Source: an uncultured Gammaproteobacteria bacterium
GTDB taxonomy: Bacteria > Patescibacteriota > Microgenomatia > Levybacterales > UBA12049
Reading direction: 5' to 3'
Assembly: GCA_964553245.1 (NCBI GenBank)
Contig: CAZKJM010000001.1
Location: forward strand, 16,892-80,891
Length of the DNA: 64,000 nucleotides
The notes below the pieces were generated by a model. It was not told the origin of the DNA and searched no databases. It saw nothing but the letters and a program-made list of their open reading frames with translations. This document shows positions 12,262 to 43,729 of this stretch, piece after piece. The translations under genes and the position numbers were made by a program. Each line of letters begins with the position of its first letter. Position 1 is the first letter of the stretch.

Positions 12262-14536
<2,275 letters not shown>

Positions 14537-14544
14537 ATCTATTT

Positions 14545-14973: not shown

Positions 14974-14975
14974 AT

Positions 14976-15004: not shown

Positions 15005-15012
15005 TCTAATAT

Positions 15013-15083
15013 GCCGATATAGCTTAACGGCAGAGCAGCGGTTTCGTAAACCGTCGACGACAGTTCGATTCTGTCTATCGGCT
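15013..15083 (+). tRNA. tRNA-Thr(CGU): tRNA-Thr, anticodon CGU, no encoded CCA
   Basis: Cloverleaf folded by hand. Acceptor GCCGATA/TATCGGC. D-arm GCTT-AACGGCA-GAGC. Anticodon arm GCGGT-TTCGTAA-ACCGT. T-arm GACAG-TTCGATT-CTGTC. Discriminator T. Confidence 0.8.
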
Positions 15084-15087
15084 CAAA

Positions 15088-15795
15088 ATGAAAAGAACAA
15101 GACTATCTAGAAGATTAGAAAGAAAAACAAAAAAAACCTTTTTTTTAATGGCAATTACTATAATTGCCGTTTTGATTGCTTTTTTTAAATTTGGAATTCC
15201 TCTATTAATAAATGTAAGCTTATTTATATCTGGTATCGGTAAGAGTAATGAGATTGTTAAAAATGAACAAAAAAATTATATTGCTCCACCAACTATTAAT
15301 CCTTTAATTAGCGCAACAAATAGTGCGGAAATAAAAATAACCGGAAACGCGTTTAAAGATCAAAATATTTCTCTTTATGTAAACAACCGTTTTATTGAAT
15401 CAAATAAAACAAATGAAAAAGGTGAGTTTAGCTTTGAATATGTTTTGGAAAAGGGAGAAAATGAAATAAAAATAAGGGCAAAACAGGGAAATGATCAAAG
15501 TGACTTTTCACCTAGTCAAACTGTAAACTATATCAATAACCAACCTACTCTTGATATTAACACGCCAACAGACGGTCAAAATTTTTCGAAAGATAATAAA
15601 ACAGTAGAAGTTACAGGTAAAACAGATCCAGATGTGATAGTGACCGTAAATGATTTTATAGCAATATTAGACGAGAATAATAATTTTAAACACATCCTTA
15701 CACTTCGCGACGGTGATAACGAAATTATAGTATCTGCAACAGATCCTGCAGGCAATAAAATACAAAAAACCGTAAAAGTTAAGTATTCTCCGTAA
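15088..15795 (+). CDS. Membrane-anchored surface protein: basic N-terminus, one TM, two tandem bacterial Ig-like (Big-type) domains
   Basis: MKRTRLSRRLERKTKK then TM AITIIAVLIAFF. Two ~80-aa repeats ending ...GENEIKIRA and ...GDNEIIVSATDPAGN (Big_6-like pattern tG..dpdv.VtVn....tvd.nG.f...l.L.dG.N.I.v.AtDaAGN). Begins 4 nt after the tRNA-Thr. Confidence 0.55.
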   Translation: MKRTRLSRRLERKTKKTFFLMAITIIAVLIAFFKFGIPLLINVSLFISGIGKSNEIVKNEQKNYIAPPTINPLISATNSAEIKITGNAFKDQNISLYVNNRFIESNKTNEKGEFSFEYVLEKGENEIKIRAKQGNDQSDFSPSQTVNYINNQPTLDINTPTDGQNFSKDNKTVEVTGKTDPDVIVTVNDFIAILDENNNFKHILTLRDGDNEIIVSATDPAGNKIQKTVKVKYSP

Positions 15796-16975
15796 TGCCA
15801 AGCAATATCCAAAACCATAATAAAAGAGGATAATAGAATAAGCTATTAATAAAAAATCCACTAATTATTAACGCAAATAACGAGCAGATAACTGTAACAT
15901 GTAAATACTTATTTTTTTTACTAGAATAATTTATTGCGTTAATTAAGATTGTCCTAATTAGAATAATGTAAGAAATAAAACCAATAACTCCCGTTGTTGC
16001 TAATATAAACAAAAAGCTATTGTCAGCACCCGACCCCGAATGAGTTATCTCCCACTGAGGTCCCCTTAAGTAACCATATTTATACTGGGAATATCTATAC
16101 GCATTAAACCCAACACCAAATATTGGGTTTTTTGCAAATATTTCAACTGCAGCCGTCGAATTTTTAAGTCTTTCTGTAGATGAAGTAATCCTTAATATAT
16201 TGGTACCTTCAGTTTTAAATGCCCTTGGCGACAAAAACAACATTATTATAAATATTAAAAACACAACAATAACATACTTTGTTTTTTTAATTAAAATTAA
16301 AAAAACAATAATAGAAGTAATCAAAGCTAAGATTGCACTTCTTGAATAGGTTAAATAAACCGCTAAAACAGATAAGAAGAACAGAATAAATAATAAAAAT
16401 TTATGTTTTAATTTATTAAAAGGTATTAAAAACCCTAAGGTAAATATACTAAATAAAGTAAAAAAACACCCAGCGAAATTTGGATCAAAAAAGGAAGAGA
16501 ACATTCTATATAAATGTTCGTCCCAGCCTTTATAATATAAATTTTTAAGACTAGGATAATAAAAGTACTGCATAAATCCTATACCTACTATAATGCTCCC
16601 TGCGTAAAGCATTAATTTTTTTACTTTTAGTTTTGAATTTTTGTCTAACGAAACAGTAATAAAATATAAGTTCGCGTAAATTATCCACCGAATCAAATAA
16701 ATAAACGATACTACTAGAGCTTCTGCTTCGTAATTAAAAATATTTACTAAAAACGATGTCAAACAGGCAATAGCAAATAAAATAATACTCTTGGAAAGTT
16801 TTCCCTTAAACGTATGTTTCTTAGTTATTATTAAAATAATATAAACAATAAAAGCTAAAGCAACTAAAAAATCATTTAAGGTAAAAGTAATATTTTTATA
16901 TAAATTAAATCTTGCAAGTTCAAGAAACGGATAGAACAATAGTAAACAGTAGATTAAATATTTTAATATTGACAT
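15779..16975 (-). CDS. O-antigen ligase-like (Wzy_C/WaaL family) polytopic membrane protein
   Basis: 398 aa, ~10 TM. Periplasmic loop motifs YLTYSRSA and HSGSGADNSFLFILATTGVIG are typical of the Wzy_C ligase/polymerase family. Confidence 0.7.
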   Translation of the reverse strand: MSILKYLIYCLLLFYPFLELARFNLYKNITFTLNDFLVALAFIVYIILIITKKHTFKGKLSKSIILFAIACLTSFLVNIFNYEAEALVVSFIYLIRWIIYANLYFITVSLDKNSKLKVKKLMLYAGSIIVGIGFMQYFYYPSLKNLYYKGWDEHLYRMFSSFFDPNFAGCFFTLFSIFTLGFLIPFNKLKHKFLLFILFFLSVLAVYLTYSRSAILALITSIIVFLILIKKTKYVIVVFLIFIIMLFLSPRAFKTEGTNILRITSSTERLKNSTAAVEIFAKNPIFGVGFNAYRYSQYKYGYLRGPQWEITHSGSGADNSFLFILATTGVIGFISYIILIRTILINAINYSSKKNKYLHVTVICSLFALIISGFFINSLFYYPLLLWFWILLGITENT

Positions 16976-18567
16976 TTTTCTTTCTCTAACGAATATAATT
17001 TTATCAAAGTTTTAGGGTTTTGATATATCATCTTCCAATTCTTAAATCTTTTAGGTATTTCTGAATTTTGAACTGCAATATAATTAAAATAATCTCCCTT
17101 TTTTACCCATGACGAATCAATATAAGGAAAATCAACGTAAAATAGATTGTGAAAGCCAAATAGTAGTACTTTATCGTTCTTAGTTATGTTTTGTTTAAAA
17201 TACAGGTCAGTGTCATAAAAATCTCCGAAACCGTAATCTAAATTATTGGATAAAAACTCATTTTTTGATATTTGCCCAAAAATTACAGGTAAATATTTGG
17301 CATTTGCCAATGTCCGGTAAAAAAGCGAGGAAAAGGTAACCAATATTACGCAGATTATAAGTATTTTTTTAATGTACTTATCTTTAACCAAATTAATTGT
17401 TAATGAACATAAAACTGCAAATCCTCCAGTGTAAGGCAAGGCAAATCTATTCCCTCCGATTTTGTATAATAAAATACTAAAAACGATCGCAAATATAAAA
17501 TATATTGTAAGAATCTTAAAATATTTATTTGATTTTTTGTACATAGTAATAATCAAAGGAAATATAAGAATATAAACAGGATTAATCGGGTCACTTGAAA
17601 AGAGAAAAATGTTAAAAAAGTTGCTAAAAAAACTCTGAATCTGAAAAAAGGAGTAATCTGCATTTAACACGTTACCGATAGGATATATTGGGTTTCCCGT
17701 GTTAAAAAAAGAAAACATTAACCACGGTAAGGGTGGTATCAAGGCAGCCACAAAGTAAGAAATCATTGCCTTGATTATCTCTTTTTTCTTTTGATTACTA
17801 TTATATAAATAATAACCAATTAACAACAAAAATATAAATAAACTTACAAAGGACACAATTTTTGCGGCAATCGCAAGCCCAAGTAGAATTCCGGAAAAAT
17901 ATAACCATATATTCTTTTTGTGTCTAATCCATTTTATAAATGCCCAAAGAGCCACCACTTCATAGAAAGTTCTTCCTAAATCAATATAAGCAGTAATTGA
18001 TTCCCAACCAACGGTTAAACTTGAATAAAAGATCAAGGATGCAATAAGCGACAATTTCCTATCCATAAATTCCCTTGAGAGTCCGTAAATCGCTCCAATA
18101 ACTAATAATCCAAAACCAAGATGAATAAACTTTGGAAACTCTTCAATTCCGGTTGAAAGACCAAAGACATAGAGCATTTCTACTAATTTCGGCATGGCAG
18201 AATAATACAAGAGACCACCGGGAATAAAATAAATTGAATGACTTGAAAGATATATCTTAGGAAGCGTTAAGTGATACCATAATGCATCAAATGATAATTC
18301 AGGACCCAATGCTCCAATTAAATTTACGAATATTTGTATAATTAACAAAATTAACAAATATAGGCTTATTTTATCTTTGTTTAATTGTTTTAAAAGTAAA
18401 AATAAATTGAGTTTAAATAATTTATTATTTCTAGATCTAGTTACAATAAAAACTAATATTGAAAATAATGTCAGAATATAAATATTGACCTGATAAAGAA
18501 TACCCAATAAGCCAAAAATAAAAATTAAATAAGAATAAATTCCAATTGCCACTGCTAAGGAGAACAT
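16963..18567 (-). CDS. Large polytopic GT-C-fold glycosyltransferase-like membrane protein (ArnT/PMT_2-like)
   Basis: 534 aa, >10 TM. First extracytoplasmic loop ELSFDALWYHLTLPKIY...GGLLYYSAMPKL resembles the D-E...KPPL.YW loop of GT39/GT83 enzymes. Confidence 0.55.
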   Translation of the reverse strand: MFSLAVAIGIYSYLIFIFGLLGILYQVNIYILTLFSILVFIVTRSRNNKLFKLNLFLLLKQLNKDKISLYLLILLIIQIFVNLIGALGPELSFDALWYHLTLPKIYLSSHSIYFIPGGLLYYSAMPKLVEMLYVFGLSTGIEEFPKFIHLGFGLLVIGAIYGLSREFMDRKLSLIASLIFYSSLTVGWESITAYIDLGRTFYEVVALWAFIKWIRHKKNIWLYFSGILLGLAIAAKIVSFVSLFIFLLLIGYYLYNSNQKKKEIIKAMISYFVAALIPPLPWLMFSFFNTGNPIYPIGNVLNADYSFFQIQSFFSNFFNIFLFSSDPINPVYILIFPLIITMYKKSNKYFKILTIYFIFAIVFSILLYKIGGNRFALPYTGGFAVLCSLTINLVKDKYIKKILIICVILVTFSSLFYRTLANAKYLPVIFGQISKNEFLSNNLDYGFGDFYDTDLYFKQNITKNDKVLLFGFHNLFYVDFPYIDSSWVKKGDYFNYIAVQNSEIPKRFKNWKMIYQNPKTLIKLYSLEKEKCQY

Positions 18568-18661
18568 AAATTCTAAATATACCTATTCAATCCTTTATTA
18601 ATAATATTAATTACGTAAGTAATTAAAATAAGAATTGCCCATAATAAAAATGATATTCTTG

Positions 18662-19405
18662 CTATTCTTTTTTCCATAACATCCATAACTTACCACGAAC
18701 AAGAAAGGAATGCATGCTCATCATTACAGCAAGCATTAAGCCCCTTATTCCATCAAAAATACCAAGTAAGAAAATATAATCTTTAATAAATTTACCCAAA
18801 GGATAAAGGAAAATTAAAAATGAATTTGTTTTAATCTTGTTTTCGAATAACTCATTCGCTCTAATCTCGGTATAAAAATTAATTTCTTTAAGAAACTCAT
18901 TTATTGTTTGATGTGGAAAATGAATTATTGGGTTATTAAGTTTTCCAATTTTACCCTTTACTTTTAGCACTTCGTGAATCTTTCCATTAAATGTTCCACT
19001 ATCTTTTTTAAAAAACCTTATTAATGAAATATTCCCTTGCTCTCCATATTTGATTTTTTTCCCCCATATAACATCTGTTCTTTTTAAAGAATATGCATCT
19101 TTATCTGATTTAAAATCTAAAATTCCCAAAATTTCATTTCTAAGTTCTTCGGGTATTCTTTCATCTGCATCAACAATTAATATCCACTCTGAGTCAACCT
19201 TACTTACTCCATAGTTTCTTTGCAAAGAAAAGTCGTTATTGAGATTTCTTTTATATACCGTAGCACCATTTGCTTTAGCGATTTGTACAGTATCATCGGT
19301 AGAATAATCATCTATAACTATTATTTTATCTGTCCAATTAAGGCTTTTTATGCACTCCTTAATATTATTCTCTTCGTTTTTAGTAAGAATTATTGATGTA
19401 ATCAT
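18662..19405 (-). CDS. Glycosyltransferase family 2 (small soluble GT-A, DxD = DADE)
   Basis: ILTKNEENNI...VIDDYSTDDT...IVDADE is a GT2 N-terminal signature. 247 aa. Confidence 0.75.
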   Translation of the reverse strand: MITSIILTKNEENNIKECIKSLNWTDKIIVIDDYSTDDTVQIAKANGATVYKRNLNNDFSLQRNYGVSKVDSEWILIVDADERIPEELRNEILGILDFKSDKDAYSLKRTDVIWGKKIKYGEQGNISLIRFFKKDSGTFNGKIHEVLKVKGKIGKLNNPIIHFPHQTINEFLKEINFYTEIRANELFENKIKTNSFLIFLYPLGKFIKDYIFLLGIFDGIRGLMLAVMMSMHSFLVRGKLWMLWKKE

Positions 19406-21594
19406 TTAGTTATTATTATTTTATCACCACGTTCTTCTATATAATACTTTAATTCCTGGTTTTTCTCTAAATTAGTTTTACCCAACCACCATAACAAATA
19501 TTCATATGGCATAATAAAACTTCTAAATTTACTTCCTTCTCCTTTTCCAGTTATGATAAAATTTCGATTTTTAGAATCACTTATAATTTTTTTACTGGCA
19601 TTGATTTTTCTTTCTAAATCATTATTTAAAAACTTTTTTGAATTAAAAATTGAATACGTATTTAAAGTAATTGTTAATAGTATTAATGTAATCCCAAATA
19701 TTTTGCTTATACTAATTATTTTTTTATAAAAAACTGCTGTCAAAATTACAAACGCTGGAAAAACAATTGGCATATATGCATCAGATAATGTTTTTGACAA
19801 TATAATTCCGGTAAAAGAAAAAAATATCCAAGCGAGCAGTAAAATGATTGATTTGTTTTTTTTGTAATCTTTAGATAAATAAATAAAATACAAGAGTGAT
19901 AATAAAAAAATTATACCTGCAATTAAATTTGACATTGGGAAAATTAAGTTTTTAAAATACATAAAAAAGTAGTTAAATTGAGAAAAAATGTTGATGTTTT
20001 CCGTAATCAAATCATTTTTAAACGGAATAATAAAGCTAACTAATTTATATCCTATCCAAATAATAAACTTTAACGTCTGAGGAAAACCATTATGGAAATC
20101 ATAATAAATCATAGGAATCATTGGTGTTAACAATAAAATTAAAGAATAAAAGATTGTATCCTTATTCATTATTCTCTTATACCAACTTGTTCTTTTTAAA
20201 TATCCGTAAATAAAAAAAGTTATAAAAATAATCCAAAGCGCAGCAGTTGCAAGCTCTAAATTATAAAGAATCCCTAAATATAAAAAAATTAACGGAAAAT
20301 ATCTTTTATTTCCGTTAATCCAATTAAAAAGTGAATGAATATATAAAACAGTAAAAATAGGTATTGGGCTTGTATGATAAGGCATTCTTGAGAAATTAAT
20401 AACAAGAGGTGAAGTTGCATAAAGTATTGTAGAAATTATTGCTACATTTTTATTAAAAATCTGTTTTGTACATAAATAAATCGCGTAAATCGTAATTATG
20501 CTAATAATTATTGATAAATAAGCTCCGCTTATTGGATTAAAGTTAAATAAATAAAGAAAAGGAATTAGTAAATAAGTCCAAAATGGTCCTTGATGAAGCC
20601 ATGTATGACTTGACGCGATTCCCACCAAGGGAAAATTACCGTTTATTAAAAAATCTCTTGCAGAGATGTAAAACCATGCTTGATCCCCAATAAATACCAT
20701 TGACTTATTAATATTATAAGTAGCTATAAAAAGAAAAAATAAACTTAAAAATAAAAGAATTATTGAATTTATACTTAATCTCGAAGTTAATTCCACAAAA
20801 AATGATGATATTAAACCATAATTTTTTCTAAAGTAATATAACCTGCTTTTTTTAAAAATACTGTCCTTGTTTTTTAACTGTTTAGTACTAACACCCCATT
20901 TATGAATAACTTTTGCAGAAGTAATAATATAGTTTTTATAACCAAGGTCTCTTATCCTTTTACAAAGATCAAATTCCTCAAAATACAAAAAAAACTGTTC
21001 ATCAAACATACCGATTTTTTCAAAAAAATCTTTTTTAACCATAAATGCAGTTCCAGGAACGACATCTACTTCTTTATTTTTATTTTTATTCCAATCTTTC
21101 AACCAATATTCATTTGCAATTTTATTATTTTTAAAAATATTACCCAGAATAGTTAAAGAAAAAATTGCATTTTTTGGACTTAAGATTTTTGTTCCTTGAA
21201 GAGAATATAAAGCTTTATTGTTTTTAAGCAATAATGGCGCAACTAGTCCAATCTTTTTTTTATTTCTTATAAATTTATATAAATTTTCAATTGCTCCCTT
21301 TTTTACGATAGTATCGGGATTAAGAAAAAATAAGAATTCTCCTTTGGCGATTTTTTCTCCATAATTAATCCCTGCTCCAAACCCTAAATTATGTGGAGAT
21401 TTAATATACTTTACATTCGGGTATTTTTTTATTAAAGCTTTTTTTAAGTTATTTTTGCTATCATTGTCTACGACTATTATTTCAAAGCTAACACTCGAGT
21501 TTGAACTATAAATCGAATCTATGCAATTTAATATTTCTTTTTTAACTTTATAATTAACGATAATTATTGAAACCTCAACTTTATATTCACTCAT
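19402..21594 (-). CDS. Fusion protein: N-terminal GT2 (WbbL/rhamnosyltransferase-like GT-A) plus C-terminal ArnT/PMT-like GT-C membrane domain
   Basis: N-terminal SIIIVNYK...VVDNDS...NPDT (GT2). After ~aa 270, more than 10 TM with the loop GDQAWFYISARDFLINGNFPLVG...HQGPFWTYLL matching the ArnT/PMT D-E/Q...KPP..W motif. Confidence 0.7.
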   Translation of the reverse strand: MSEYKVEVSIIIVNYKVKKEILNCIDSIYSSNSSVSFEIIVVDNDSKNNLKKALIKKYPNVKYIKSPHNLGFGAGINYGEKIAKGEFLFFLNPDTIVKKGAIENLYKFIRNKKKIGLVAPLLLKNNKALYSLQGTKILSPKNAIFSLTILGNIFKNNKIANEYWLKDWNKNKNKEVDVVPGTAFMVKKDFFEKIGMFDEQFFLYFEEFDLCKRIRDLGYKNYIITSAKVIHKWGVSTKQLKNKDSIFKKSRLYYFRKNYGLISSFFVELTSRLSINSIILLFLSLFFLFIATYNINKSMVFIGDQAWFYISARDFLINGNFPLVGIASSHTWLHQGPFWTYLLIPFLYLFNFNPISGAYLSIIISIITIYAIYLCTKQIFNKNVAIISTILYATSPLVINFSRMPYHTSPIPIFTVLYIHSLFNWINGNKRYFPLIFLYLGILYNLELATAALWIIFITFFIYGYLKRTSWYKRIMNKDTIFYSLILLLTPMIPMIYYDFHNGFPQTLKFIIWIGYKLVSFIIPFKNDLITENINIFSQFNYFFMYFKNLIFPMSNLIAGIIFLLSLLYFIYLSKDYKKNKSIILLLAWIFFSFTGIILSKTLSDAYMPIVFPAFVILTAVFYKKIISISKIFGITLILLTITLNTYSIFNSKKFLNNDLERKINASKKIISDSKNRNFIITGKGEGSKFRSFIMPYEYLLWWLGKTNLEKNQELKYYIEERGDKIIITK

Positions 21595-23911: not shown

Positions 23912-23919
23912 ATTAGTGA

Positions 23920-23949
23920 TTGAAATTATATCAGTTTTAGCCTTATAAT
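23920..23949 (+). promoter_or_regulatory. Candidate promoter (TTGAAA-N18-TATAAT) for the C-methyltransferase gene, in a divergent intergenic region
   Basis: TTGAAA at 23920-23925. TATAAT at 23944-23949. ATG at 23969. On the opposite strand, TGaTATAAT (extended -10) lies 13 nt upstream of the GT4 ATG. Confidence 0.35.
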
Positions 23950-23968
23950 ACGATATCTTTAAACTGGA

Positions 23969-27829: not shown

Positions 27830-28079
27830 TTTTTTTAACTAAAAACATAATAATTATCAATGAGAAAAACGGAGAAAGAATAATTAATAAAAACAACAAA
27901 TTATCAAAATTACCAGGATATCCATAATAATTAATATAACCAATTATTTTCTCTTTTCCTATTTTTTGAACTGGAAAAAAACTTCTAATTTGTCTAAGAA
28001 ATAAAACAATCAAAAACAAAAATGTGAACGTTGTAGAGAGATATTCTATAATTAGCTCTGTTGATTTTCCTTTATTCAT
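27813..28079 (-). CDS. Small 2-TM membrane protein (88 aa) overlapping the start of the large membrane protein; possible accessory subunit
   Basis: Two hydrophobic helices, TTFTFLFLIVLFL and LLFLLIILSPFFSLIIIMFLV. 17-nt overlap with the downstream gene. Confidence 0.35.
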   Translation of the reverse strand: MNKGKSTELIIEYLSTTFTFLFLIVLFLRQIRSFFPVQKIGKEKIIGYINYYGYPGNFDNLLFLLIILSPFFSLIIIMFLVKKNEKNN

Positions 28080-28117
28080 AAGGTATATTATATAAAATTA
28101 AGAGTAATAATTATACA

Positions 28118-31929: not shown

Positions 31930-31946
31930 AAAGCTTGATAATTATA

Positions 31947-34532: not shown

Positions 34533-34572
34533 AATTATACCACTAAATAAGCATATAATAAATTTAATTGGC

Positions 34573-34602
34573 TTGAAAAATTAAAGAAAAAATAACTATA
34601 AT
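34573..34602 (+). promoter_or_regulatory. Promoter TTGAAA-N18-TATAAT, 6 nt upstream of ATG 34609 (leaderless transcript predicted)
   Basis: TTGAAA at 34573-34578. TATAAT at 34597-34602. Confidence 0.4.
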
Positions 34603-34608
34603 ACAACA

Positions 34609-36456: not shown

Positions 36457-36457
36457 T

Positions 36458-38215
36458 ATGCCAAGTAATTATCATATGGTTGTTGTTAATCTTATTGCAT
36501 CTGCAATTCTTGGAATCGGTATATTGTTTTACAAATTTATTTATCCAAAGAAAAAAATAAATTTGTTTATTCTTTTATTATTAATATCAATATTACCTAT
36601 AATTAGTATTTTTAGACCGGGTACTTATGAAAGCGGAGACTTCAATATACATATTTATAGAATAATTACATTTTACAATTCACTAAAAGAAGGTATATTT
36701 ATGCCTTCATGGGCAGCCGATTTAAATGCAACATATGGAAATCCGTTGTTTATATTTAATTATAATTTACCCTATTATATTATTTCCCTATTTCATTTTT
36801 TCGGATTTAGTTTTATAACAAGTACTAAATTATACTTAGCATTTGTAATGTACTTTTCCGGAATAGCGATGTATCTATGGTTTAATAAACTTACAGGAAA
36901 TAAATTAGCTTCATTTACAGCAAGCATATTTTATTTATTTAGCCCATATCATTTAATTGACGTACATTTTAGGGCAACGCTAGGTGAATCTACAATTTTT
37001 TTTCTTCTCCCAATGTTTTTTTATACAATTATTAATTATTATGATCATAAAAAAGTTAATTATCTAATTTACATATGTTTAACAAGCGCATTGTTATTCT
37101 TAGCTCATCCATTGCTTGCTATACCTTCAATCGGTATTGGTTTTTTATATTCCCTTTTTATATTTATAACAAACAGGAAAACGGTCTTGCTAATTAATGT
37201 TTTCCTCTCTCTCGTTCTTGGCGTATTAGGAGCTTCATATCTTTGGATTCCATTTTTATTATTTTCGGGTTTCACTTTTTCAAATGGAACTCCTAATTTA
37301 TATTTTTATCCATTCAGCTATTTATTTTATTCTCCTTGGAGGCTAGGATTTCTTTTTCAGGGACCAAAAGGAGAGTTGCAGCTTATTATTGGATATACTC
37401 AAATATTTGTTGTTATTATTAGTTTAATTATTTTATGTAAGAATTTAATTTATTCAAAAATTAGACATGATTATATTTTTTGGATAAGTATTTTTTTGCT
37501 TTTAGTATTTTTTTTAAGTCCTATTTCAATTTTTATTTGGATCTTTTTTCCGTTATTATGGATGCTCTTACCCTATGGAAGACTCCTATTGCTTATATCC
37601 TTTTCTACATCAATGATTGCTGGTTATTTTACAATATTTTGTCAAAAATTTAAGAGAGGACAAGGTTTAATATTAATATTAATTTTAATCACAATTCTCT
37701 ATTCTATATTAAATTGGGGACACAGAAGGGTTATAGAAGACATAAACGATGATTATTTGATTAAAAATGTACCATACAGCACTCTAAACGAAGGTTTAAC
37801 AGCGTATTTTTTAAACAACAAGTGGGCTGATGTTAATAATTTTTGGTTTGATAAGATACCCAAAAATCATCTTGAAATAATTAATGGAGTTGGTTATGTA
37901 AAGCAAATTAAAAGAAATTCAATCAGTCACAGATATGAAGTCAATGCTAAAACATCACTAAAAGTAAAAGAAAATACATTATTCTTTCCAGGTTGGCAAT
38001 TAAGAATAGGTAATAAAATAATCCCCATTTATCCGGGAGAAAGAGGGATAATTAATGCTGATTTGCCAATGGGAAAATATGAAATTGAATTAAAATATGA
38101 AGATATTTTTATCTATAAGTTATCTAAATTTATTGCTATATTTTTTTTCTCTGTATTAATATTCATGATCTTAATTTATAGCATTTCAAGTCGAAGATTT
38201 AACTCCAAACCATAA
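36458..38215 (+). CDS. Large polytopic membrane protein (585 aa), YfhO-like GT-C candidate
   Basis: YESGDFNIHIYRIITFYNSLKEGIFMPSWAADLNATYGNPLFIFNYNLPYY matches the YfhO-family N-terminal loop pattern D.FH..R....G..P.W....G.P.F.FY.PL.YY. Confidence 0.5.
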   Translation: MPSNYHMVVVNLIASAILGIGILFYKFIYPKKKINLFILLLLISILPIISIFRPGTYESGDFNIHIYRIITFYNSLKEGIFMPSWAADLNATYGNPLFIFNYNLPYYIISLFHFFGFSFITSTKLYLAFVMYFSGIAMYLWFNKLTGNKLASFTASIFYLFSPYHLIDVHFRATLGESTIFFLLPMFFYTIINYYDHKKVNYLIYICLTSALLFLAHPLLAIPSIGIGFLYSLFIFITNRKTVLLINVFLSLVLGVLGASYLWIPFLLFSGFTFSNGTPNLYFYPFSYLFYSPWRLGFLFQGPKGELQLIIGYTQIFVVIISLIILCKNLIYSKIRHDYIFWISIFLLLVFFLSPISIFIWIFFPLLWMLLPYGRLLLLISFSTSMIAGYFTIFCQKFKRGQGLILILILITILYSILNWGHRRVIEDINDDYLIKNVPYSTLNEGLTAYFLNNKWADVNNFWFDKIPKNHLEIINGVGYVKQIKRNSISHRYEVNAKTSLKVKENTLFFPGWQLRIGNKIIPIYPGERGIINADLPMGKYEIELKYEDIFIYKLSKFIAIFFFSVLIFMILIYSISSRRFNSKP

Positions 38216-39088
38216 CATTTCTCCTGGAATGTAAAAAGTCCACTTTTTTTTAAAAATAAAAAAAGGTTTTATAAACTTCATTATTTTATGTATATGTTTG
38301 TATCTACTCAGTGAATTATCAAGTAAATCGAAAAGAAAGACCACAGGATAAGTCTTTGTAAATAAATGGTTTACTCCAAATTTTTTTGCCAGCAGAGTCA
38401 AGCTTTTATGCGAAAAATATTGAATATGTTGTCCTTGCCAATACCACCAATTATGACCAAGTAATTTACTACTAAAAGCATTAACATCTCCTGTCCAAAT
38501 AATAATTAAGCCTCCGGGTTTTAATAATTTACTTATGTACTTCATCTCTATTGAAGGATTTTCGAAATGCTCAATTACCCCAAATAGAGTTACGATATCA
38601 TATCTATTCTTGATTTTTTTTGATAATGTTTTTAAAAGCATTCTGTGTACTTTTATTTTGTTTTTTTTTGCAATCTTTGAAGACCAATTAGATATTTCCA
38701 AGCCTTCTACTTTGTATCCATAACTTCGTGCAACATTTAAGAATTCTCCTGTTGCACATCCTATGTCAAGTATTTTGCCTGATGTAATTTGGCGCTTAAT
38801 TATTGGTAATATTTTTTTTGCTGATTCCCTAATTGACTCAAGATAGTTCAGATACTCTTTATCCTCAACATCTTTATAGTTCCTATACATGTTACGGGGA
38901 AGCGGATTACAAAAAACGTGAGAGCAATTCATGCACATTACCGATCGAAATGTTTTTCCGGAATCAGGCGTTTTAACATATATAAATGATAATTTTTTAA
39001 TATCGATTGTTGATGGGTATAATTCTTTTGTCTCAGTAGATTTACATATCGGACATGAATCTAATTTCATAAATTTATTTCTTGGCAA
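38186..39088 (-). CDS. Class I SAM-dependent methyltransferase with N-terminal Cys4 zinc ribbon
   Basis: CPICKST...CMNCSHVFCNP. ILDIGCATGEF SAM motif I. Confidence 0.7.
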   Translation of the reverse strand: MPRNKFMKLDSCPICKSTETKELYPSTIDIKKLSFIYVKTPDSGKTFRSVMCMNCSHVFCNPLPRNMYRNYKDVEDKEYLNYLESIRESAKKILPIIKRQITSGKILDIGCATGEFLNVARSYGYKVEGLEISNWSSKIAKKNKIKVHRMLLKTLSKKIKNRYDIVTLFGVIEHFENPSIEMKYISKLLKPGGLIIIWTGDVNAFSSKLLGHNWWYWQGQHIQYFSHKSLTLLAKKFGVNHLFTKTYPVVFLFDLLDNSLSRYKHIHKIMKFIKPFFIFKKKWTFYIPGEMLWFGVKSST

Positions 39089-39857
39089 CTAGAAAAATAT
39101 TTGTACCATTATCTTGTTCATCAACATATTTTAAATATTTTCTAACCAGATAATTTCTGACAAAATCTGGTTTAAAAACCATTCTCTTTCCAAAAATTAC
39201 TTTTAGAATTTGCGATGGCCAAGATGTAAGTATAAATAAGTCATAAATCTTGGTTACATTTGGGGAAACGATATTTTCCATTTTTACTATTTTAAATCCG
39301 TTTTTTTCAAAAAGTTTTTTCCATTCATTATTGTTCAATAATATGTGCCTCTTAAAAAAACTGTTATATTTTTTTGTTAAATATTTACTAATAGATTTTA
39401 ATCCGTATTTTTTAAGCATTGGTCTATAAAAAGTATTATTGTCTACCCTATCTGTTTCTATAGATGCAATTATCTTTCCACCTGGTTTTAATACTCGATA
39501 ACACTCTTTTAATAATTTATTAGAATTTTTTATGTGCTCAAGAGTACTGATTGATATAATTGTATAAAATGTATTATCCGCAAACGGCATCTTCCTTGCA
39601 TCGGCTAAAATTAATTTTTTGTATTTATTAGTTTTTCCTGCCATTGATAAGTCTCTTTTACTAATATCTAACCCAATATCGATTTTTTTATCCGTAAAAC
39701 ACTGCATAAATTCGCCAAATCCACAACCTAAATCAATAACAGGAGCTTTTATTTTTTCATTTGCTAAATATTTTGCTTCAACACTTCTCCATATAGCTAC
39801 GCTAAGAGGGGTAATTCTTAAAAACCTACGAAAATATTTTTCTGATTTTGAATTCAT
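39075..39857 (-). CDS. Class I SAM-dependent methyltransferase (Methyltransf_11-like)
   Basis: VIDLGCGFGEF motif I. LKPGGKII motif. Confidence 0.75.
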   Translation of the reverse strand: MNSKSEKYFRRFLRITPLSVAIWRSVEAKYLANEKIKAPVIDLGCGFGEFMQCFTDKKIDIGLDISKRDLSMAGKTNKYKKLILADARKMPFADNTFYTIISISTLEHIKNSNKLLKECYRVLKPGGKIIASIETDRVDNNTFYRPMLKKYGLKSISKYLTKKYNSFFKRHILLNNNEWKKLFEKNGFKIVKMENIVSPNVTKIYDLFILTSWPSQILKVIFGKRMVFKPDFVRNYLVRKYLKYVDEQDNGTNIFLVAKK

Positions 39858-39907
39858 TTAATTTTACAAATTTAAATTCTAACAGATGAAATTAACTGTG
39901 TAAAGAA

Positions 39908-40984
39908 TTACTGAGTATTTTTCCAAAGCTTTAAGTAGATATCTGCAATATCTGTCCATGTTTTATCCATTACCCATTTATATCCATTATCGACCATATT
40001 CTTATACTTAAAATTATTATTCACAACGTCCATTATTCCCCTAGATAATTCTTTTGAATTTTTAAAAATAAGTATAAAGTTTTTAAATGGAGTATTCACT
40101 AAGTAATCTTTTTTAATTCCATTGTTATACAAAGCAAATACAATCTTTTTTGACACTAAAGACTCAAATATGCCTAAGTATCTAGAAACAAAAATAAATT
40201 TATAATTTTTAATTTGCTCGTCTGCATTTGAAATAAAACCCTTAAATTGAATTTTTAACTTATTATTTTTAGCAAAAATTTTCGCTGCTTTTCCTAATGA
40301 ACCATCGCCATAAACATCGAGTGCAATATTTATTTTTTTTGATTTTAATATTTTTATAGCTTTTAGATAATCCATTATTCCTGTTTCTTTTTCCAATCTA
40401 CCAATAAACATTGCTTTATTAAAAGCTACAGATTTATCTTTAATTTTAATGTATTTTACAGCTCCGTATATTATATGATTTGGTTTTGTCCTATACCACT
40501 TTTCATAAAAGTTTCCAACGCAAATATTTCCCTTTGTTAGCTTTTCTGCAAGCTTATGCATAAAAATCGATCTCTTGTTAGGAATTGAGTTTCCTTCATA
40601 TCCGTGAAACGTAACAAAAACCTTTTTATTAGGGTAAATGAATCTAAACGGAAGATACCAATAAAAAATATCGTGACAATGAATAATATCCGCGTCTTTA
40701 ATAATATTTTTAATTTTAAATAATTCTTTCCATGCTTTAAGTTTTTCTAACTTATTTACCTTACCGTTGTTTATATAAATTATTCTTATTTTATCGATTT
40801 CTCCCGTCATCTTATCACTTAAAAGCATTGATTGATAATCCGTGTTTTGAGAAAAACTCTCTTTTGAAGTAATTACAGTAATACTATGACCTTTTTTAAT
40901 AAGTTCTTTTCCTAATTCCAAACAATGTTTCTCTACTCCACCAATATGGGGGTAAAAATACCTACACAAAAAAATAATTTTCAT
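39908..40984 (-). CDS. Glycosyltransferase family 4 (GT-B)
   Basis: MKIIFLCRYFYPHIGGVEKHCLELGKELIKKGHSITVIT is a GT4 N-terminal signature. 358 aa. Confidence 0.8.
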   Translation of the reverse strand: MKIIFLCRYFYPHIGGVEKHCLELGKELIKKGHSITVITSKESFSQNTDYQSMLLSDKMTGEIDKIRIIYINNGKVNKLEKLKAWKELFKIKNIIKDADIIHCHDIFYWYLPFRFIYPNKKVFVTFHGYEGNSIPNKRSIFMHKLAEKLTKGNICVGNFYEKWYRTKPNHIIYGAVKYIKIKDKSVAFNKAMFIGRLEKETGIMDYLKAIKILKSKKINIALDVYGDGSLGKAAKIFAKNNKLKIQFKGFISNADEQIKNYKFIFVSRYLGIFESLVSKKIVFALYNNGIKKDYLVNTPFKNFILIFKNSKELSRGIMDVVNNNFKYKNMVDNGYKWVMDKTWTDIADIYLKLWKNTQ

Positions 40985-41709
40985 TTCTTCCTAGCAACAA
41001 TAATAAAATTAGATTCACCGAATAGATAAACAAGCAAATTGTCTATTAATGTTAAGGAATCTGAGAAAATAAATTTTATAAATTTTATACCTTTTCCTGC
41101 GACACTATTAGTAAATAGAAAATTTCGAAGTATCCCTTCAACCTTTTTTACTTCTATAATATTAAAACCATTCCTTTCTATTTTATTACATAATTCATCG
41201 ATCGAATATCGTCTTAAATGACCAACCTTTTTATCGAATTTTTTTAATAGGCCCATTCTATAAAGCGGTGCACTTTTGGATGGAGCAGACAAAAACAGTA
41301 AACCATTTTTATCTAACATTTTTTTTATTTTTTTCAGAACATATTCATCTTTTTTTAAATGCTCTATCACCTCTGTTAATAAAATTAAATTATATCTACC
41401 AGCAATGTATTGTTTGGGAAAATCAATAACACGAAAATTTACATATTCACTTAGGTTTAAATATCTTGCAGTTGATGAGCTAGCCCTAATTGCATTTATT
41501 GATATATCTACTCCCAAGACCTTAATGCCTTTACTTCCTAAATATAAACTCAATGTTCCCGCCCCACATCCTATATCCAATGCGGTGGCAATACTTGCAA
41601 TATATTTATCTAAAACTTCCAAAATTAATCGATATGTAAAATCTTTTTTATTTATTATTTTCTTTTGAACCGATGTGTATTTATGAAAAAGGTTATAATT
41701 TATTTCCAT
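40981..41709 (-). CDS. Class I SAM-dependent methyltransferase
   Basis: ALDIGCGAGTLS motif I. LKKDGLLFLSAP-like motif. Confidence 0.75.
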   Translation of the reverse strand: MEINYNLFHKYTSVQKKIINKKDFTYRLILEVLDKYIASIATALDIGCGAGTLSLYLGSKGIKVLGVDISINAIRASSSTARYLNLSEYVNFRVIDFPKQYIAGRYNLILLTEVIEHLKKDEYVLKKIKKMLDKNGLLFLSAPSKSAPLYRMGLLKKFDKKVGHLRRYSIDELCNKIERNGFNIIEVKKVEGILRNFLFTNSVAGKGIKFIKFIFSDSLTLIDNLLVYLFGESNFIIVARKK

Positions 41710-41719
41710 TCGCTTAAGT

Positions 41720-41748
41720 ATTTTACCACTGTGTATATTTATTCACAA
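41720..41748 (-). promoter_or_regulatory. Minus-strand promoter TTGTGA-N17-TAAAAT, 10 nt upstream of the ATG of the methyltransferase/GT4 operon (near-leaderless)
   Basis: The reverse complement of 41743-41748 is TTGTGA. The reverse complement of 41720-41725 is TAAAAT. Confidence 0.35.
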
Positions 41749-41835
41749 ACGAATTATTCATAGTTGAATTATGTTGTAAATTTTTTAGATTTTCTATCTT
41801 GACAAAGATATTAAAAGTATACTTATATTAAAATT

Positions 41836-43644
41836 GTGAATAAAAAATTATTATTACGATCAATGTTAGTAACTTTAATCGGTATACTATACTTTATTAA
41901 TCCAAATACCGTTCATGGAACAACAACTATATTTAAAGACGACTTCGAAAATGGAAATATTAATCAATGGACAAGCGTAAGGGGTCCAGCTAATTTATGG
42001 CAAATAAAACAAATAAATGGAACTAACATGCTTGGAGCAAGAATTGAGAATGGTAGCACCATCATTGATAGCATCGCCAAATCAACTCAAATTGCAACAT
42101 CAAGCTATGTATTAGAGTTTGATTACTTAACAATTACTGGAATTGATAATAGCTTAGATTCTCGATGGACATATAATTTAACTGAGGACTATTATGACGT
42201 AAAGGAAGTTCATTATCTTGGAGAAAATAATGTCTGGACAAATTTCGGATGCGTAAATTTTATAAACTCATCTACGCTGAAATATAATTTTTTAAACCAC
42301 ATTAAAATCATTTACGAAAACCAACGCATGCAATTTTATTTAAATAACATAAAAATAATTGATTATAATGATACGAATTATTTATTTCCAGGGAATGAGT
42401 ACATAGGTATAAGAATAAGTACTGGAGCAAGTTATCCAAAAGAAGCATGGTTTGATAATATTTTAGTAACAAGCCTAGAAGACGAACCAGGTTTAGATAT
42501 TCCATTATTAAAGCAAACTGATCCCCTTTGGAAAGATGAAGTTTATGATACTGCTATGAATTGGTCTCCAAGCGATCCAACTATAAATTCCTGGGGTTGT
42601 GCAATGACCTCTGCTGCAATGATCTTGAACTATCATAAAATCGTAAATCTACCCAATGGAGAAATGTTAAATCCAAAAACACTTAACGAATGGCTTAAAA
42701 ACCAACCTGATGGATACATAGGTAATGGGCTAACCAATTGGTTAGCCATATCAAGATTATCAAAACTTGCAAAAGAAAGCGGGAATAACCAAAGTTTTAA
42801 TTACGATTCTCTGGAATATATACGCAACAAGGGAGAAGATAGGCAGCTGTTAACAGATGACCTTAAAAATCTACACCCAGATATCCTTGAGCAACAAGGT
42901 CATTTTGTCGTCGCAACCGGCATATCTGGAGAAACTTTTCTAATAAATGATCCCTATTTCAACAGAACAACATTAAATGATGGATACAATAATACATTTT
43001 TATCTCTCGGAAGATATATTCCATCCAATAGCGACCTTTCTTATTTTATGTTTACGACTAAACCCGATGTTAATATTGAATTGAAAGATGTAAACGGAAA
43101 CATTGTAGAATCTGAATTTTCTGAAGAACAAATCATTAATCATGATAATCAAACAAACGGAGAAAAGATAAAAATAGTTTATTTTCCGAAACCGGAATCT
43201 GGTAAATACAAACTAATTTTTAGCTCGAAACTCAGCAGCCTTAGAACGTTTAAATCGTATGTTTATGATTTAAACGGAAATGTTAAAATACAGGAATCCG
43301 ATAAAGCCCTAATCAATTCATTGCCAACGATATTTAATGTTAACTTTGACAAAAATAATCTAAATTATTATAAACTAGAGAAAACAGTTAGTTTTGAGAG
43401 TACGATCAGAGACATTGAATATTTCATCAAAACTGGATCTATAAAAAATAAAGATTTCGGAAATGCCCTCATAACCTTGGTTAAAAATACAAAGAAATAT
43501 ACTAATAGGAATATGATAAAAATTGCAAAAATAAATTTAAACCAAGCAAAAAAATTAATTTCAACTACAAAAGGTATATTAATAAATAAAGATGCTTACG
43601 AGACTATAAACTACGATTTAGATTATCTTCTAAAAAATTTATAA
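41836..43644 (+). CDS. Secreted multidomain protein: signal peptide, concanavalin/LamG-like jelly-roll domain, C39-like papain-fold cysteine peptidase domain, ~200-aa C-terminal region of unknown function
   Basis: MNKKLLLRSMLVTLIGILYFINPNTVHG signal peptide. FKDDFENGNINQWTSVRGP...W lectin-fold start. WSPSDPTINSWGCAMTSAAMILNYHKI (catalytic Cys context of Peptidase_C39_2) and QGHFVVATGISGETFLINDPY (His/Asp). GTG start at 41836. Confidence 0.6.
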   Translation: MNKKLLLRSMLVTLIGILYFINPNTVHGTTTIFKDDFENGNINQWTSVRGPANLWQIKQINGTNMLGARIENGSTIIDSIAKSTQIATSSYVLEFDYLTITGIDNSLDSRWTYNLTEDYYDVKEVHYLGENNVWTNFGCVNFINSSTLKYNFLNHIKIIYENQRMQFYLNNIKIIDYNDTNYLFPGNEYIGIRISTGASYPKEAWFDNILVTSLEDEPGLDIPLLKQTDPLWKDEVYDTAMNWSPSDPTINSWGCAMTSAAMILNYHKIVNLPNGEMLNPKTLNEWLKNQPDGYIGNGLTNWLAISRLSKLAKESGNNQSFNYDSLEYIRNKGEDRQLLTDDLKNLHPDILEQQGHFVVATGISGETFLINDPYFNRTTLNDGYNNTFLSLGRYIPSNSDLSYFMFTTKPDVNIELKDVNGNIVESEFSEEQIINHDNQTNGEKIKIVYFPKPESGKYKLIFSSKLSSLRTFKSYVYDLNGNVKIQESDKALINSLPTIFNVNFDKNNLNYYKLEKTVSFESTIRDIEYFIKTGSIKNKDFGNALITLVKNTKKYTNRNMIKIAKINLNQAKKLISTTKGILINKDAYETINYDLDYLLKNL

Positions 43645-43655
43645 ATTATTGGCTG

Positions 43656-43729
43656 TGGACTTGAGAGGATTCGAACCTCTGACCTCTTCGATGTGAACGA
43701 AGCGCTCTAACCAACTGAGCCACAAGTCC
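43656..43729 (-). tRNA. tRNA-Val(CAC): tRNA-Val, anticodon CAC, no encoded CCA
   Basis: Reverse complement folds as GGACTTG-TG-GCTC-AGTTGGTTA-GAGC-G-CTTCG-TTCACAT-CGAAG-AGGTC-AGAGG-TTCGAAT-CCTCT-CAAGTCC-A. Confidence 0.8.

Follow-up and report, generated by a model that had tools for sequence, protein, structure and literature searches.

The locus described here raises two questions: whether a large block of envelope-glycan genes lying between two transfer RNA (tRNA) genes was acquired from elsewhere or inherited in place, and what such a block might make. It is part of a 64-kb stretch of contig CAZKJM010000001.1 (the window), in which ARAGORN finds exactly two tRNA genes, tRNA-Thr(CGT) and tRNA-Val(CAC), with 28.6 kb between them (the interval). 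An earlier note on this DNA had recognized both tRNAs as boundaries, and in this it was right, but it took everything between them to be accessory and the whole to be a horizontally acquired island. The comparison with relatives leads to a different answer. The interval is probably a surface-glycan locus that is conserved in its lineage at a fixed chromosomal position and variable in content, and not a recently acquired mobile island. The reason is that in relatives the locus occupies the same position on the chromosome, its ends conserved and its middle variable.

The locus in related genomes

Relatives were sampled from both sides of the interval. On the atp side the sample comes from an AtpD scan with one genome per species, and two further loci (L166 and L167) were reached via homologs of a fusion protein encoded in the interval. 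On the lepB side it comes from a ParB scan of metagenome contigs, a query that is blind to glycan genes, so that the sample is unbiased for them; 37 loci have at least 3 kb of sequence beyond lepB and 31 have at least 5 kb. The relatives covered show 77-83% identity in AtpD or 56-81% in ParB.

The interval is framed by two conserved blocks. At the left end the order is atpC, tRNA-Thr(CGT) and genes for an Ig-like protein, a Wzy_C-domain protein, a PMT_2 protein, a family 2 glycosyltransferase (GT2) and a GT2-PMT_2 fusion, usually together with a family 4 glycosyltransferase (GT4) and a Wzx flippase. At the right end it is GT4, tRNA-Val(CAC), lepB and parB. This frame is inherited. The closest relatives with downstream sequence, L001 (AtpD 83%) and L002 (77%), have atpC, tRNA-Thr(CGT) and the Ig-like, Wzy_C and PMT_2 genes at 36-50% identity, and both carry a homolog of the GT2 of 247 amino acids (aa); L001 also continues into the GT2-PMT_2 fusion and the first of the two GT4 enzymes (GT4a) at 42-53% identity. 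The same left block is found in L166 and L167 (AtpD 80-82%), followed there by GT4, methyltransferase and Wzx genes. tRNA-Thr(CGT) adjoins the Ig-like gene in L001, L002, L103, L156, L166 and L167, and the Ig-like gene, with homologs of 35-50% identity, is always adjacent and convergent to the Wzy_C gene in relatives (the same six loci and L097).

On the lepB side, tRNA-Val(CAC) stands beside lepB in 31 of 37 loci. Homologs of interval genes lie beyond this tRNA in 28 of the 31 longer ParB-selected loci, and a homolog of the second GT4 (GT4b) is found in the same orientation, 0.2-6.8 kb from lepB, in 25 of them. Two relatives have both tRNAs on one contig. In L103, where the contig reaches atpC/atpD, they are 8.1 kb apart and enclose Wzx, GT4, GT2, methyltransferase, GT2, PMT_2, Wzy_C and Ig-like genes; in L156 they are 5.8 kb apart. 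In L097 the Ig-like gene is the last on the contig, some 6 kb away from tRNA-Val. The earlier note had proposed looking for relatives in which atpC-tRNA-Thr is joined directly to tRNA-Val-lepB, and in L103 and others this site is occupied by homologs.

From relative to relative the middle of the locus varies both in its number of genes and in the nucleotide-sugar pathway encoded. The distance from tRNA to tRNA is 5.8 kb in L156, 8.1 kb in L103 and 28.6 kb in the window. A heptose-type set (GHMP kinase, SIS, NTP-transferase and HAD) is found in L166, a UDP-glucose dehydrogenase in L167, RmlC and RmlD with two C-methyltransferases in L163, and transketolase-like genes in L164; the window has three genes of a pathway for a 6-deoxy-N-acetylhexosamine (6-deoxy-HexNAc). 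In a fragment from a close relative (L162, 70-91% amino acid identity) the genes follow the same order over 12.9 kb, and the GC content is likewise 0.261. The description of the interval as accessory thus fits the middle, which does differ, and not the end blocks, which are conserved across the lineage.

Some observations weigh against a frame that is fixed throughout the lineage. Three of the ParB-selected loci (L099, L124 and L155) have other genes after tRNA-Val, and the frame is therefore not universal. Rearrangements are found beside the tRNAs, namely in L085, where tRNA-Val is duplicated, in L154, where tRNA-Thr is displaced, and in L166, where two genes are inserted between atpC and tRNA-Thr, and because of them some gene flux at the site must be regarded as real. 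In more distant Microgenomates (loci of Roizman-, Woyke- and Daviesbacteria) the block does not follow atpC; its gain, or its move to this site, falls at the base of the present clade.

Three of these loci can be described further. In L155 (ParB 77%, on a 724-kb contig) the region after tRNA-Val (11524-20822) has no homolog of the window locus; its genes encode UDG, FemAB, a DegT aminotransferase, a Mur-ligase-like protein, a hydrolase, GlmS and a hexapeptide transferase, and are also envelope-related. In L085 (4393-7359) tRNA-Val(CAC) is present in two complete copies at a distance of 2.9 kb, with an FkbM-type methyltransferase and two open reading frames (ORFs) without Pfam match between them; the pair lies just before the C39-like gene, has no integrase and looks like a local duplication or insertion. 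In L154, tRNA-Thr(CGT) is only 2.2 kb from tRNA-Val with more glycan genes beyond, which indicates a rearranged locus.

Base composition and mobility genes

The GC content is 0.2615 in the interval, 0.3247 in the left flank and 0.3252 in the right flank, and homopolymer runs of six or more bases number 8.9 per kb in the interval against 5.5 and 6.7 in the flanks. The impression in the earlier note that the interval is richer in AT and in homopolymers than the core was therefore accurate. However, it is the first two codon positions that carry the GC deficit (position 1: interval 0.305, left flank 0.434, right flank 0.415; position 2: 0.273, 0.315 and 0.328) and not the synonymous sites (0.209 against 0.226 and 0.239 at position 3; 0.197 against 0.210 and 0.230 at four-fold sites). 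For this reason the low GC is read as an effect of amino acid composition and not of foreign DNA; the shift towards AT appears to reflect fast-evolving, weakly constrained, membrane-rich proteins in an AT-biased genome. The tetranucleotide z-scores of the interval correlate with those of the flanks at 0.65-0.75, and those of the two flanks with each other at 0.64. A GC dip beyond lepB is found in 35 of 37 related loci, and has been reported for O-chain clusters generally, for instance 23.8% against 29.4% for the genome in Pelagibacterales (PMC11898729).

The cumulative GC skew is highest at about 15 kb, where the left boundary of the locus lies, and declines steadily beyond it. Within the interval the sign of the skew goes with the orientation of the genes, being positive over genes on the plus strand (28-31 and 34.6-38 kb) and negative over genes on the minus strand. 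The peak at about 15 kb was considered as a replication terminus, and is read instead as a coding-strand effect where gene orientation converges.

Pfam and NCBIfam scans of all 23 ORFs of the interval found no integrase, recombinase or transposase, and because about 99% of the interval is filled by ORFs there is no room for a missed mobility gene. In a blastn-short search with both tRNAs, partial copies within the interval did not exceed 10 nt, and the longest such match anywhere in the window, of 13 nt, lies in the right flank (63154-63166). Repeats in 14500-44500 are AT-rich pairs of low identity only, with nothing above chance. The earlier note had likewise seen no integrase, transposase or direct repeat of a tRNA 3' end.

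The alternative that a horizontally acquired island integrated at a tRNA gene, and brought in an envelope-glycosylation machine from another organism, has in its favour the tRNA genes at both ends, a GC content 6 points under that of the flanks with more homopolymer runs, the differing gene content among relatives and the rearrangements by the tRNAs in L085 and L154. It does not account for the same genes, site, tRNAs and core genes in relatives down to 56% identity in ParB and 77% in AtpD, nor for synonymous-site GC and a tetranucleotide signature that match the flanks, nor for a GC dip common to nearly all relatives, and it receives no help from mobility genes or att-like tRNA repeats in a stretch so densely coding. 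For the GT2-PMT_2 fusion protein of 730 aa, moreover, homologs number at least 1567; each of the top 120 is full-length (722-753 aa), and every one of these with a source name is labelled Candidatus Levybacteria or Patescibacteria group. These labels also place the organism, a CPR bacterium (of the candidate phyla radiation) in the Microgenomates that is probably Levybacteria-like. Synteny largely refutes an acquired island, which is now very improbable: homologous genes with the same GC dip are found at the same locus in relatives, a kind of result that the earlier note itself had named as speaking against its proposal, and the GC and tetranucleotide analysis that it had proposed shows no foreign composition.

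Genes of the interval

The interval holds 23 ORFs (Table 1), 22 of at least 100 aa and one of 88 aa with two predicted transmembrane (TM) segments that an independent gene caller also reports. They are distributed over both strands and form at least eight transcription blocks.

Table 1. Genes of the interval and the tRNA genes at its ends, with coordinates in the window. GT-C, glycosyltransferase of the C fold; SAM, S-adenosylmethionine.
Feature	Coordinates	Strand	Evidence and remarks
tRNA-Thr(CGT)	15013..15084	+	ARAGORN; left boundary, conserved
Ig-like protein, N-terminally membrane-anchored, 235 aa	15088..15795	+	Pfam Glucodextran_B 5e-18; one TM, residues 23-41
Wzy_C-domain polytopic protein, 398 aa	15779..16975	-	Pfam Wzy_C 7e-22; about 11 TM; conserved in relatives
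GT-C glycosyltransferase, PMT_2 family, 534 aa	16963..18567	-	Pfam PMT_2 1.7e-7; left block
GT2 with C-terminal TM, 247 aa	18662..19405	-	Pfam Glycos_transf_2 9e-19; left block
GT2 + PMT_2 (GT-C) fusion, 730 aa	19402..21594	-	Pfam GT2 4e-22, PMT_2 1.6e-10; left block
Wzx-type (MOP) flippase, 407 aa	21595..22818	-	Pfam Polysacc_synt_3 9e-50; NCBIfam MOP flippase 1e-47
GT4 glycosyltransferase a, 372 aa	22793..23911	-	Pfam Glycos_transf_1, Glyco_transf_4
NDP-sugar C-methyltransferase-type enzyme, 404 aa	23969..25183	+	Pfam Methyltransf_14 6e-50, Methyltransf_13 1e-12
Soluble DPM1-like GT2 a, putative polyprenyl-phosphate-sugar synthase, 238 aa	25176..25892	-	
Orphan-family GT-C-fold membrane protein (predicted fold), 647 aa	25886..27829	-	
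Small two-TM membrane protein, 88 aa	27813..28079	-	ORF and gene call; 17-base overlap with start of orphan GT-C gene
RmlD-like sugar 4-reductase, 291 aa	28118..28993	+	Pfam RmlD_sub_bind 9e-21; NCBIfam rmlD 2.5e-18, under cutoff
Non-hydrolysing UDP-HexNAc 2-epimerase, 399 aa	28983..30182	+	Pfam Epimerase_2 1.8e-74; NCBIfam WecB 211 bits, cutoff 210
Soluble DPM1-like GT2 b, 242 aa	30166..30894	+	Pfam GT2 1.9e-25
FnlA/CapE-like UDP-GlcNAc 4,6-dehydratase/5-epimerase, 352 aa	30871..31929	-	Pfam Polysacc_synt_2 4e-93, Polysacc_syn_2C
GT2 + PMT_2 (GT-C) fusion, 861 aa	31947..34532	-	Pfam GT2 1.3e-20, PMT_2 2.3e-7
GT-C-like membrane protein, 615 aa	34609..36456	+	No Pfam match; PMT_2 paralog; homologs in L081, L087, L100
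PTPS_related polytopic membrane protein, GT-C-like, 585 aa	36458..38215	+	Pfam PTPS_related 3.5e-10; homologs in 14/31 relatives
SAM methyltransferase, 300 aa	38186..39088	-	Pfam Methyltransf_23 4.5e-29
SAM methyltransferase, 260 aa	39075..39857	-	Pfam Methyltransf_11 3.4e-20; homologs in 8/31 relatives
GT4 glycosyltransferase b, 358 aa	39908..40984	-	Pfam Glyco_transf_4, Glycos_transf_1; conserved right-end marker
SAM methyltransferase, 242 aa	40981..41709	-	Pfam Methyltransf_23 3.4e-20
Secreted multidomain protein with C39_2 peptidase-like domain, 602 aa	41836..43644	+	Pfam Peptidase_C39_2 1e-9, residues 220-374
tRNA-Val(CAC)	43655..43729	-	ARAGORN; right boundary, conserved

The view of the interval as one large envelope-glycan machine with the gene families listed in the earlier note is upheld. 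Pfam supports Wzx, the Wzy_C protein and two GT4 enzymes, the three enzymes of the UDP-6-deoxy-HexNAc pathway (FnlA-like dehydratase, RmlD-like reductase and 2-epimerase), and one C-methyltransferase with three other SAM methyltransferases. At least six large GT-C-like membrane proteins had been proposed, and all six have support: four from Pfam (three PMT_2 and one PTPS_related), one from paralogy and one from its predicted fold. The counts need correction, since there are 23 genes and not 25, and five GT2 domains and not six, and no protein matches Pfam YfhO, where several had been called YfhO-like. Two proteins at the ends were described as a membrane-anchored Ig-like protein and a secreted protein with lectin and C39 peptidase parts; the anchor, the signal peptide and the C39_2 domain were recovered, while the N-terminal lectin-like part comes down to a weak LamG-like match.

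Orthologs of the 534-aa PMT_2 protein (47-51% identity) are found in L001, L002, L103, L166 and L167, and orthologs of the 247-aa GT2 have 45-55% identity in relatives. Those of GT4a (41-48% identity) adjoin the fusion gene in L001, L164, L166 and L167, and the 861-aa fusion has homologs at 39-56% identity in many relatives. The FnlA-like dehydratase scores 403 bits against NCBIfam FnlA (cutoff 730) and 324 bits against PseB. The C39_2 protein has a signal-peptide-like N-terminus, a weak match to 3keto-disac_hyd (LamG-like) at residues 117-211 and homologs in 8 of 31 relatives. No useful match came from searching the PDB with the sequences of the Wzy_C, PTPS_related and C39-like proteins.

The C39_2 homolog in L154 (1289-3608, 724 aa) bears N-terminal Kelch beta-propeller repeats ahead of the C39_2 domain, which suggests a modular family of secreted proteins composed of a binding domain and a C39-like domain.

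The Ig-like protein was also considered as PamR, the anchor of the Pam pilus of candidate phyla radiation (CPR) bacteria. It scores 26 bits against NCBIfam CPR_pilus_PamR, with a cutoff of 300, and this is probably a generic Ig/FnIII similarity; the TM segment is N-terminal in the Ig-like protein and C-terminal in PamR. No link between PamR and glycosylation has been reported.

Glycosyltransferases and the orphan GT-C module

According to Pfam the five GT2 domains are those of two soluble enzymes, of the 247-aa enzyme and of the two fusions. Along its entire length soluble GT2 a matches dolichyl-phosphate mannose synthase (DPMS, PDB 5mlz, 3.5e-20), and it also matches ArnC (about 1e-7); its neighbours in NCBIfam are AglJ, ArnC and PpgS. 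Soluble GT2 b is its paralog (33% identity), with ArnC, PgfS, AglJ and Dol-P-hexose transferase as best NCBIfam matches. Both lack a TM segment and have the motif DSDLAH or DSDLTN. In the two fusions the GT2 domains are of another type: that of the 730-aa protein resembles chondroitin synthase and TarP/TarS and not DPMS, and that of the 861-aa protein resembles TarP/TarS. Of the DPM1-like synthases proposed earlier the two soluble enzymes therefore stand, and the fusion domain does not, being closest to TarS/TarP and chondroitin synthase. Such GT2-GT-C fusions are abundant in Levybacteria-like genomes and uncharacterised.

The six GT-C genes take up about 11.9 of the 28.6 kb, or 42% of the locus. 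PTPS_related is presumably a GT-C family, to judge from its Pfam clan membership. The 615-aa protein is counted as GT-C-like because it is a paralog of the 534-aa PMT_2 protein (blastp, 28% identity over 450 aa, 2e-21).

The remaining protein, of 647 aa, has no match in Pfam or NCBIfam. Its AlphaFold2 model (pLDDT 83.6, pTM 0.79) has a GT-C fold, and by this predicted fold alone the protein is assigned to a sequence-orphan GT-C family. In an alignment of 25 homologs D42 is invariant and D62 at least 90% conserved; both follow the first TM helix, and an acidic residue is thus conserved in the first extracytoplasmic loop. Placing it in a known GT-C family by sequence was rejected, as the hhalign probabilities of 39% against the PMT_2 protein and 0.3% against the PTPS_related protein are not significant. 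A word-index search had returned 26 proteins and made the family look tiny, but this was overturned by an exhaustive profile search, in which 253 clusters at 50% identity reach E<=1e-30 and 1105 reach E<=1e-3; what the family lacks is annotation, and it is not rare. Homologs of 770-905 aa were considered as GT2 fusions and rejected, since none contains a Pfam domain and their N-terminal extensions consist of additional TM segments.

Directly upstream of the orphan GT-C gene lies a two-TM gene of 79-88 aa, an arrangement kept in L162, L164 and L165. In the window this 88-aa protein has no Pfam or NCBIfam match even at E<=5. Together with the orphan GT-C and a DPM1-like GT2 it forms a module that L162 has as a whole and L163 and L164 have in part, and in these three loci the C-methyltransferase gene is convergent to the module.

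The longest orphan homologs (about 900 aa; P0255, P0256 and P0263) have an N-terminal loop motif, G-x-x-x-x-Q-Y/F-x-G-V/I-S-x-F/M-G/A-D/E, which faintly resembles the motif GYINYYGYPGNFDN of the 88-aa partner; the best phmmer E value, 0.008 in a search of 11 sequences, is weak. The two genes may be fused in these long homologs.

A possible pathway and its product

Judged by its gene families, the locus appears to combine a Wzx/Wzy_C route with modules for decoration by polyprenyl-phosphate sugars and GT-C enzymes, a 6-deoxy-HexNAc pathway and methylation. By the classic route of three enzymes, the FnlA-like dehydratase, RmlD-like reductase and 2-epimerase would make a UDP-2-acetamido-2,6-dideoxy-L-hexose of the N-acetyl-L-quinovosamine (L-QuiNAc), N-acetyl-L-rhamnosamine (L-RhaNAc) or N-acetyl-L-fucosamine (L-FucNAc) type. 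The RmlD-like reductase presumably points slightly to L-RhaNAc or L-QuiNAc, if the WbvB/WbvR/WbvD and FnlABC pathways are taken as guides. The C-methyltransferase belongs to a family that acts on NDP-keto-sugars, and O-methylation of sugars is the probable role of the three SAM methyltransferases. An oligosaccharide would be built on a polyprenyl phosphate carrier by the two GT4 enzymes and the 247-aa GT2, on the cytoplasmic side of the membrane. Because the locus encodes no phosphoglycosyl transferase, priming would depend either on a gene elsewhere in the genome or, following the example of lactococcal WpsA/B, on a DPM1-like GT2 that uses polyprenyl monophosphate. Wzx would then flip the lipid-linked unit, which the Wzy_C protein would polymerise or ligate to an acceptor. 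Polyprenyl-phosphate monosaccharides would be supplied by the two DPM1-like GT2 enzymes and used outside the membrane by the six GT-C enzymes for extending or decorating the polymer. One such module may consist of the 88-aa membrane protein, the orphan GT-C and a DPM1-like GT2, with the convergent C-methyltransferase. Candidate acceptors are a wall polysaccharide, peptidoglycan, an S-layer protein, a pilin or the neighbouring Ig-like protein. Gene blocks related to peptidoglycan stand on both sides of the locus, and this position is compatible with a wall-linked polymer.

Four points tell against this pathway. Pfam and NCBIfam find no initiating phosphoglycosyl transferase, chain-length regulator (Wzz or polysaccharide co-polymerase, PCP) or ligase of the LCP type in the window; there is no Bac_transf or Glycos_transf_4 protein in 15085-43654, and the sole Glycos_transf_4 protein of the window is the MraY-like one in the dcw cluster. 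The motif DxDxQ, proposed as the hallmark of polyprenyl-phosphate glycosyltransferases, reads DSDLA or DSDLT in the soluble GT2 enzymes. The 88-aa protein shows no detectable similarity to the GtrA or GacJ families. Finally, the Wzy_C protein could be of the polymerase, ligase or O-oligosaccharyltransferase type, roles that its sequence does not separate.

The last point bears on a second explanation, that the locus mainly serves general protein O-glycosylation. The Wzy_C protein would then be an O-oligosaccharyltransferase of the PglL/TfpO/TfpM type, the PMT_2 proteins protein O-glycosyltransferases and the targets pilins, an S-layer protein or the adjacent Ig-like protein, in place of a system with a polysaccharide polymerase or ligase. 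The Wzy_C protein matches TfpM, an O-linking oligosaccharyltransferase, as well as it matches RfaL, but at 45 bits each these NCBIfam scores are far under the family cutoffs of 277-600. PMT_2 is a family resembling protein O-mannosyltransferases, but it also includes ArnT-like lipid and polysaccharide transferases. The constant, convergent pairing of the Ig-like gene with Wzy_C is reminiscent of pilin genes that adjoin tfpO; the Ig-like protein, however, has no obvious Ser/Thr-rich acceptor tract. The closest solved structures to the 247-aa GT2 are GmaR (1.2e-18) and SunS (7e-12), which glycosylate proteins or peptides, and the missing chain-length regulator and LCP ligase also suit protein glycosylation. 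The number of GT-C enzymes and the variability of the sugar pathway, on the other hand, resemble wall-polysaccharide loci, and protein O-glycosylation as the main role is considered unlikely.

A third explanation would regard the locus as a patchwork of independent GT2 and GT-C pairs with different envelope targets and no common product, clustered at a site that tolerates insertions. The many transcription blocks on both strands, the recurrence of modules in other combinations and orders among relatives, and the orphan GT-C module that travels as a unit would all be expected of a patchwork. However, the minimal 8.1-kb version in L103 is already one coherent set (Wzx, GT4, GT2 enzymes, GT-C and Wzy_C), the 28.6 kb of the window contain a single Wzx and a single Wzy_C, and the end blocks are always kept together. 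We regard a patchwork as quite unlikely, and a single envelope glycan remains the preferred reading.

A more far-reaching version is put forward very tentatively. The conserved end block (Ig-like protein, Wzy_C, PMT_2, GmaR/SunS-like GT2 and GT2-GT-C fusion) could be an undescribed envelope glycosylation system specific to Levybacteria, in which the fusions would be self-contained, the cytoplasmic GT2 loading the lipid carrier and its own GT-C transferring the sugar outside the membrane. The Ig-like protein would be a dedicated acceptor or scaffold, and the orphan GT-C with its 88-aa partner a further module.

Flanking genes

Pfam supports the core genes that the earlier note had placed on either side, the atp operon at the left and lepB, parB, ribosomal and dcw genes at the right. 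The left flank consists of MurT/GatD-like genes, GatC/A/B, a GGDEF protein and DnaE, followed by atpBF(H)AGDC ending in atpD and atpC. The right flank begins with LepB, ParB, ribosomal protein L21, a SEDS protein and isoleucyl-tRNA synthetase (IleRS) and continues with a dcw-type block of FtsZ, FtsA, MurG, FtsW, MraY, MurA, Mur ligases and a penicillin-binding protein (PBP).

The GGDEF protein (4886-5620, 244 aa) has a diguanylate-cyclase domain and is encoded between gatB and dnaE in a reduced genome. It has no match at the equivalent position in L002 and L069, and in L003 a gap of about 780 bp without match is found there. Between IleRS and FtsZ lies a 199-aa ORF with a GTG start (50093-50692) that covers positions 8-167 of the 347 in the MFS_1 profile, that is, the first half only; it may be a truncated or split transporter gene. 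The right flank has two SEDS (FtsW/RodA) paralogs (45926-47008 and 54700-55770), and an NTP-transferase gene (56894-57652) lies inside the dcw block between mraY and murA.

Implications

The CPR/Patescibacteria have tiny genomes, are thought to live attached to hosts and have an envelope chemistry that is almost unknown. The single glycan locus described here, at 28.6 kb, amounts to as much as about 5% of a 562-kb contig on which it lies. A fixed site with swapped sugar pathways is the pattern expected of a surface structure under diversifying selection by phage, host recognition or grazing, and O-antigen and cell-wall polysaccharide loci show the same pattern. The conserved frame can be used for extracting and typing these loci in Levybacteria-like metagenome-assembled genomes. 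The orphan GT-C family, with hundreds of clusters at 50% identity, no Pfam model and a conserved set of gene partners, is a second outcome. A third is a correction: low GC and flanking tRNAs alone are no evidence of horizontal acquisition in AT-rich reduced genomes.

Comparison with known systems

Assembly of mycobacterial arabinogalactan and lipoarabinomannan (LAM) by Emb, Aft and PimE offers a possible analogy, in that many GT-C enzymes use polyprenyl-phosphate-sugar donors outside the membrane. Sequence identity to these enzymes is only 6-12%, however, no genes of the decaprenyl-phosphate-arabinose (DPA) or galactofuranose (Galf) pathways are found here, and the mycobacterial genes do not form one variable locus with Wzx and Wzy_C.

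Wzx/Wzy clusters for O-antigen or capsule share with the locus a Wzx, a Wzy_C-domain protein, GT4 and GT2 enzymes, an FnlA-type 6-deoxy-HexNAc trio and methyltransferases. They differ from it in that the interval has no initiating phosphoglycosyl transferase or Wzz/PCP and devotes so large a share of its length to GT-C enzymes.

In its function and evolution the locus resembles the replacement flexible genomic islands and O-chain clusters of Alteromonas and Pelagibacterales (PMC4033161, PMC11898729), which have a fixed site between the same core genes, the same function carried out by differing genes, a GC content under the genome average and no integrase. Unlike in those islands, the variation here is among relatives at the level of species or genus and not among strains of one species, the cluster's own ends are conserved, and the host is probably a monoderm without lipopolysaccharide.

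The distinctive features of the locus are the absence of priming and chain-length genes, the high number of GT-C enzymes, the two GT2-GT-C fusions and the unannotated GT-C-fold family with its small partner. In the literature searched, no direct description was found of CPR glycan loci of this kind or of a characterised GT2-GT-C fusion.

The locus also resembles Gram-positive wall-polysaccharide loci in which a constant part is combined with a variable one (PMC10821137), and systems built on polyprenyl monophosphate. The lactococcal cwps cluster for rhamnan and polysaccharide pellicle (PSP), streptococcal GacIJKL, Gtr and CsbB/YfhO share a logic of GT2, small membrane protein, a flippase of the Wzx type and an enzyme of the GT-C fold, and in lactococci the same logic explains priming without a classical phosphoglycosyl transferase (PMC10821137). 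The locus appears to have both the DPMS-like GT2 and the GT-C partner of the three- or four-component systems (Gtr, CsbB/GtcA/YfhO, GacIJKL and WpsABGJ), and its variable sugar pathway follows described systems too. As in cwps and GacIJKL, a DPMS-like GT2 that would make sugar-phosphate-polyprenol is accompanied by a small candidate membrane partner and a Wzx-type flippase (PMC10821137), GT-C-fold enzymes would polymerise or transfer outside the membrane, and the locus has a conserved part and a variable part, the latter lacking a classical phosphoglycosyl transferase. The locus differs from them in its six GT-C proteins, two of them fused to TarS/TarP-like GT2 domains, in having no rhamnan ABC-transporter genes, in a small 2-TM protein without Pfam similarity, in the DSDLA/T motif of its GT2 enzymes in place of DxDxQ, and in its host, a CPR bacterium. 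The statement of the earlier note that no described pathway matches is therefore true of the exact composition, for which there is no characterised cluster, but not of the underlying logic, which follows that of cwps/PSP, GacIJKL, Gtr and CsbB/YfhO (PMC10821137).

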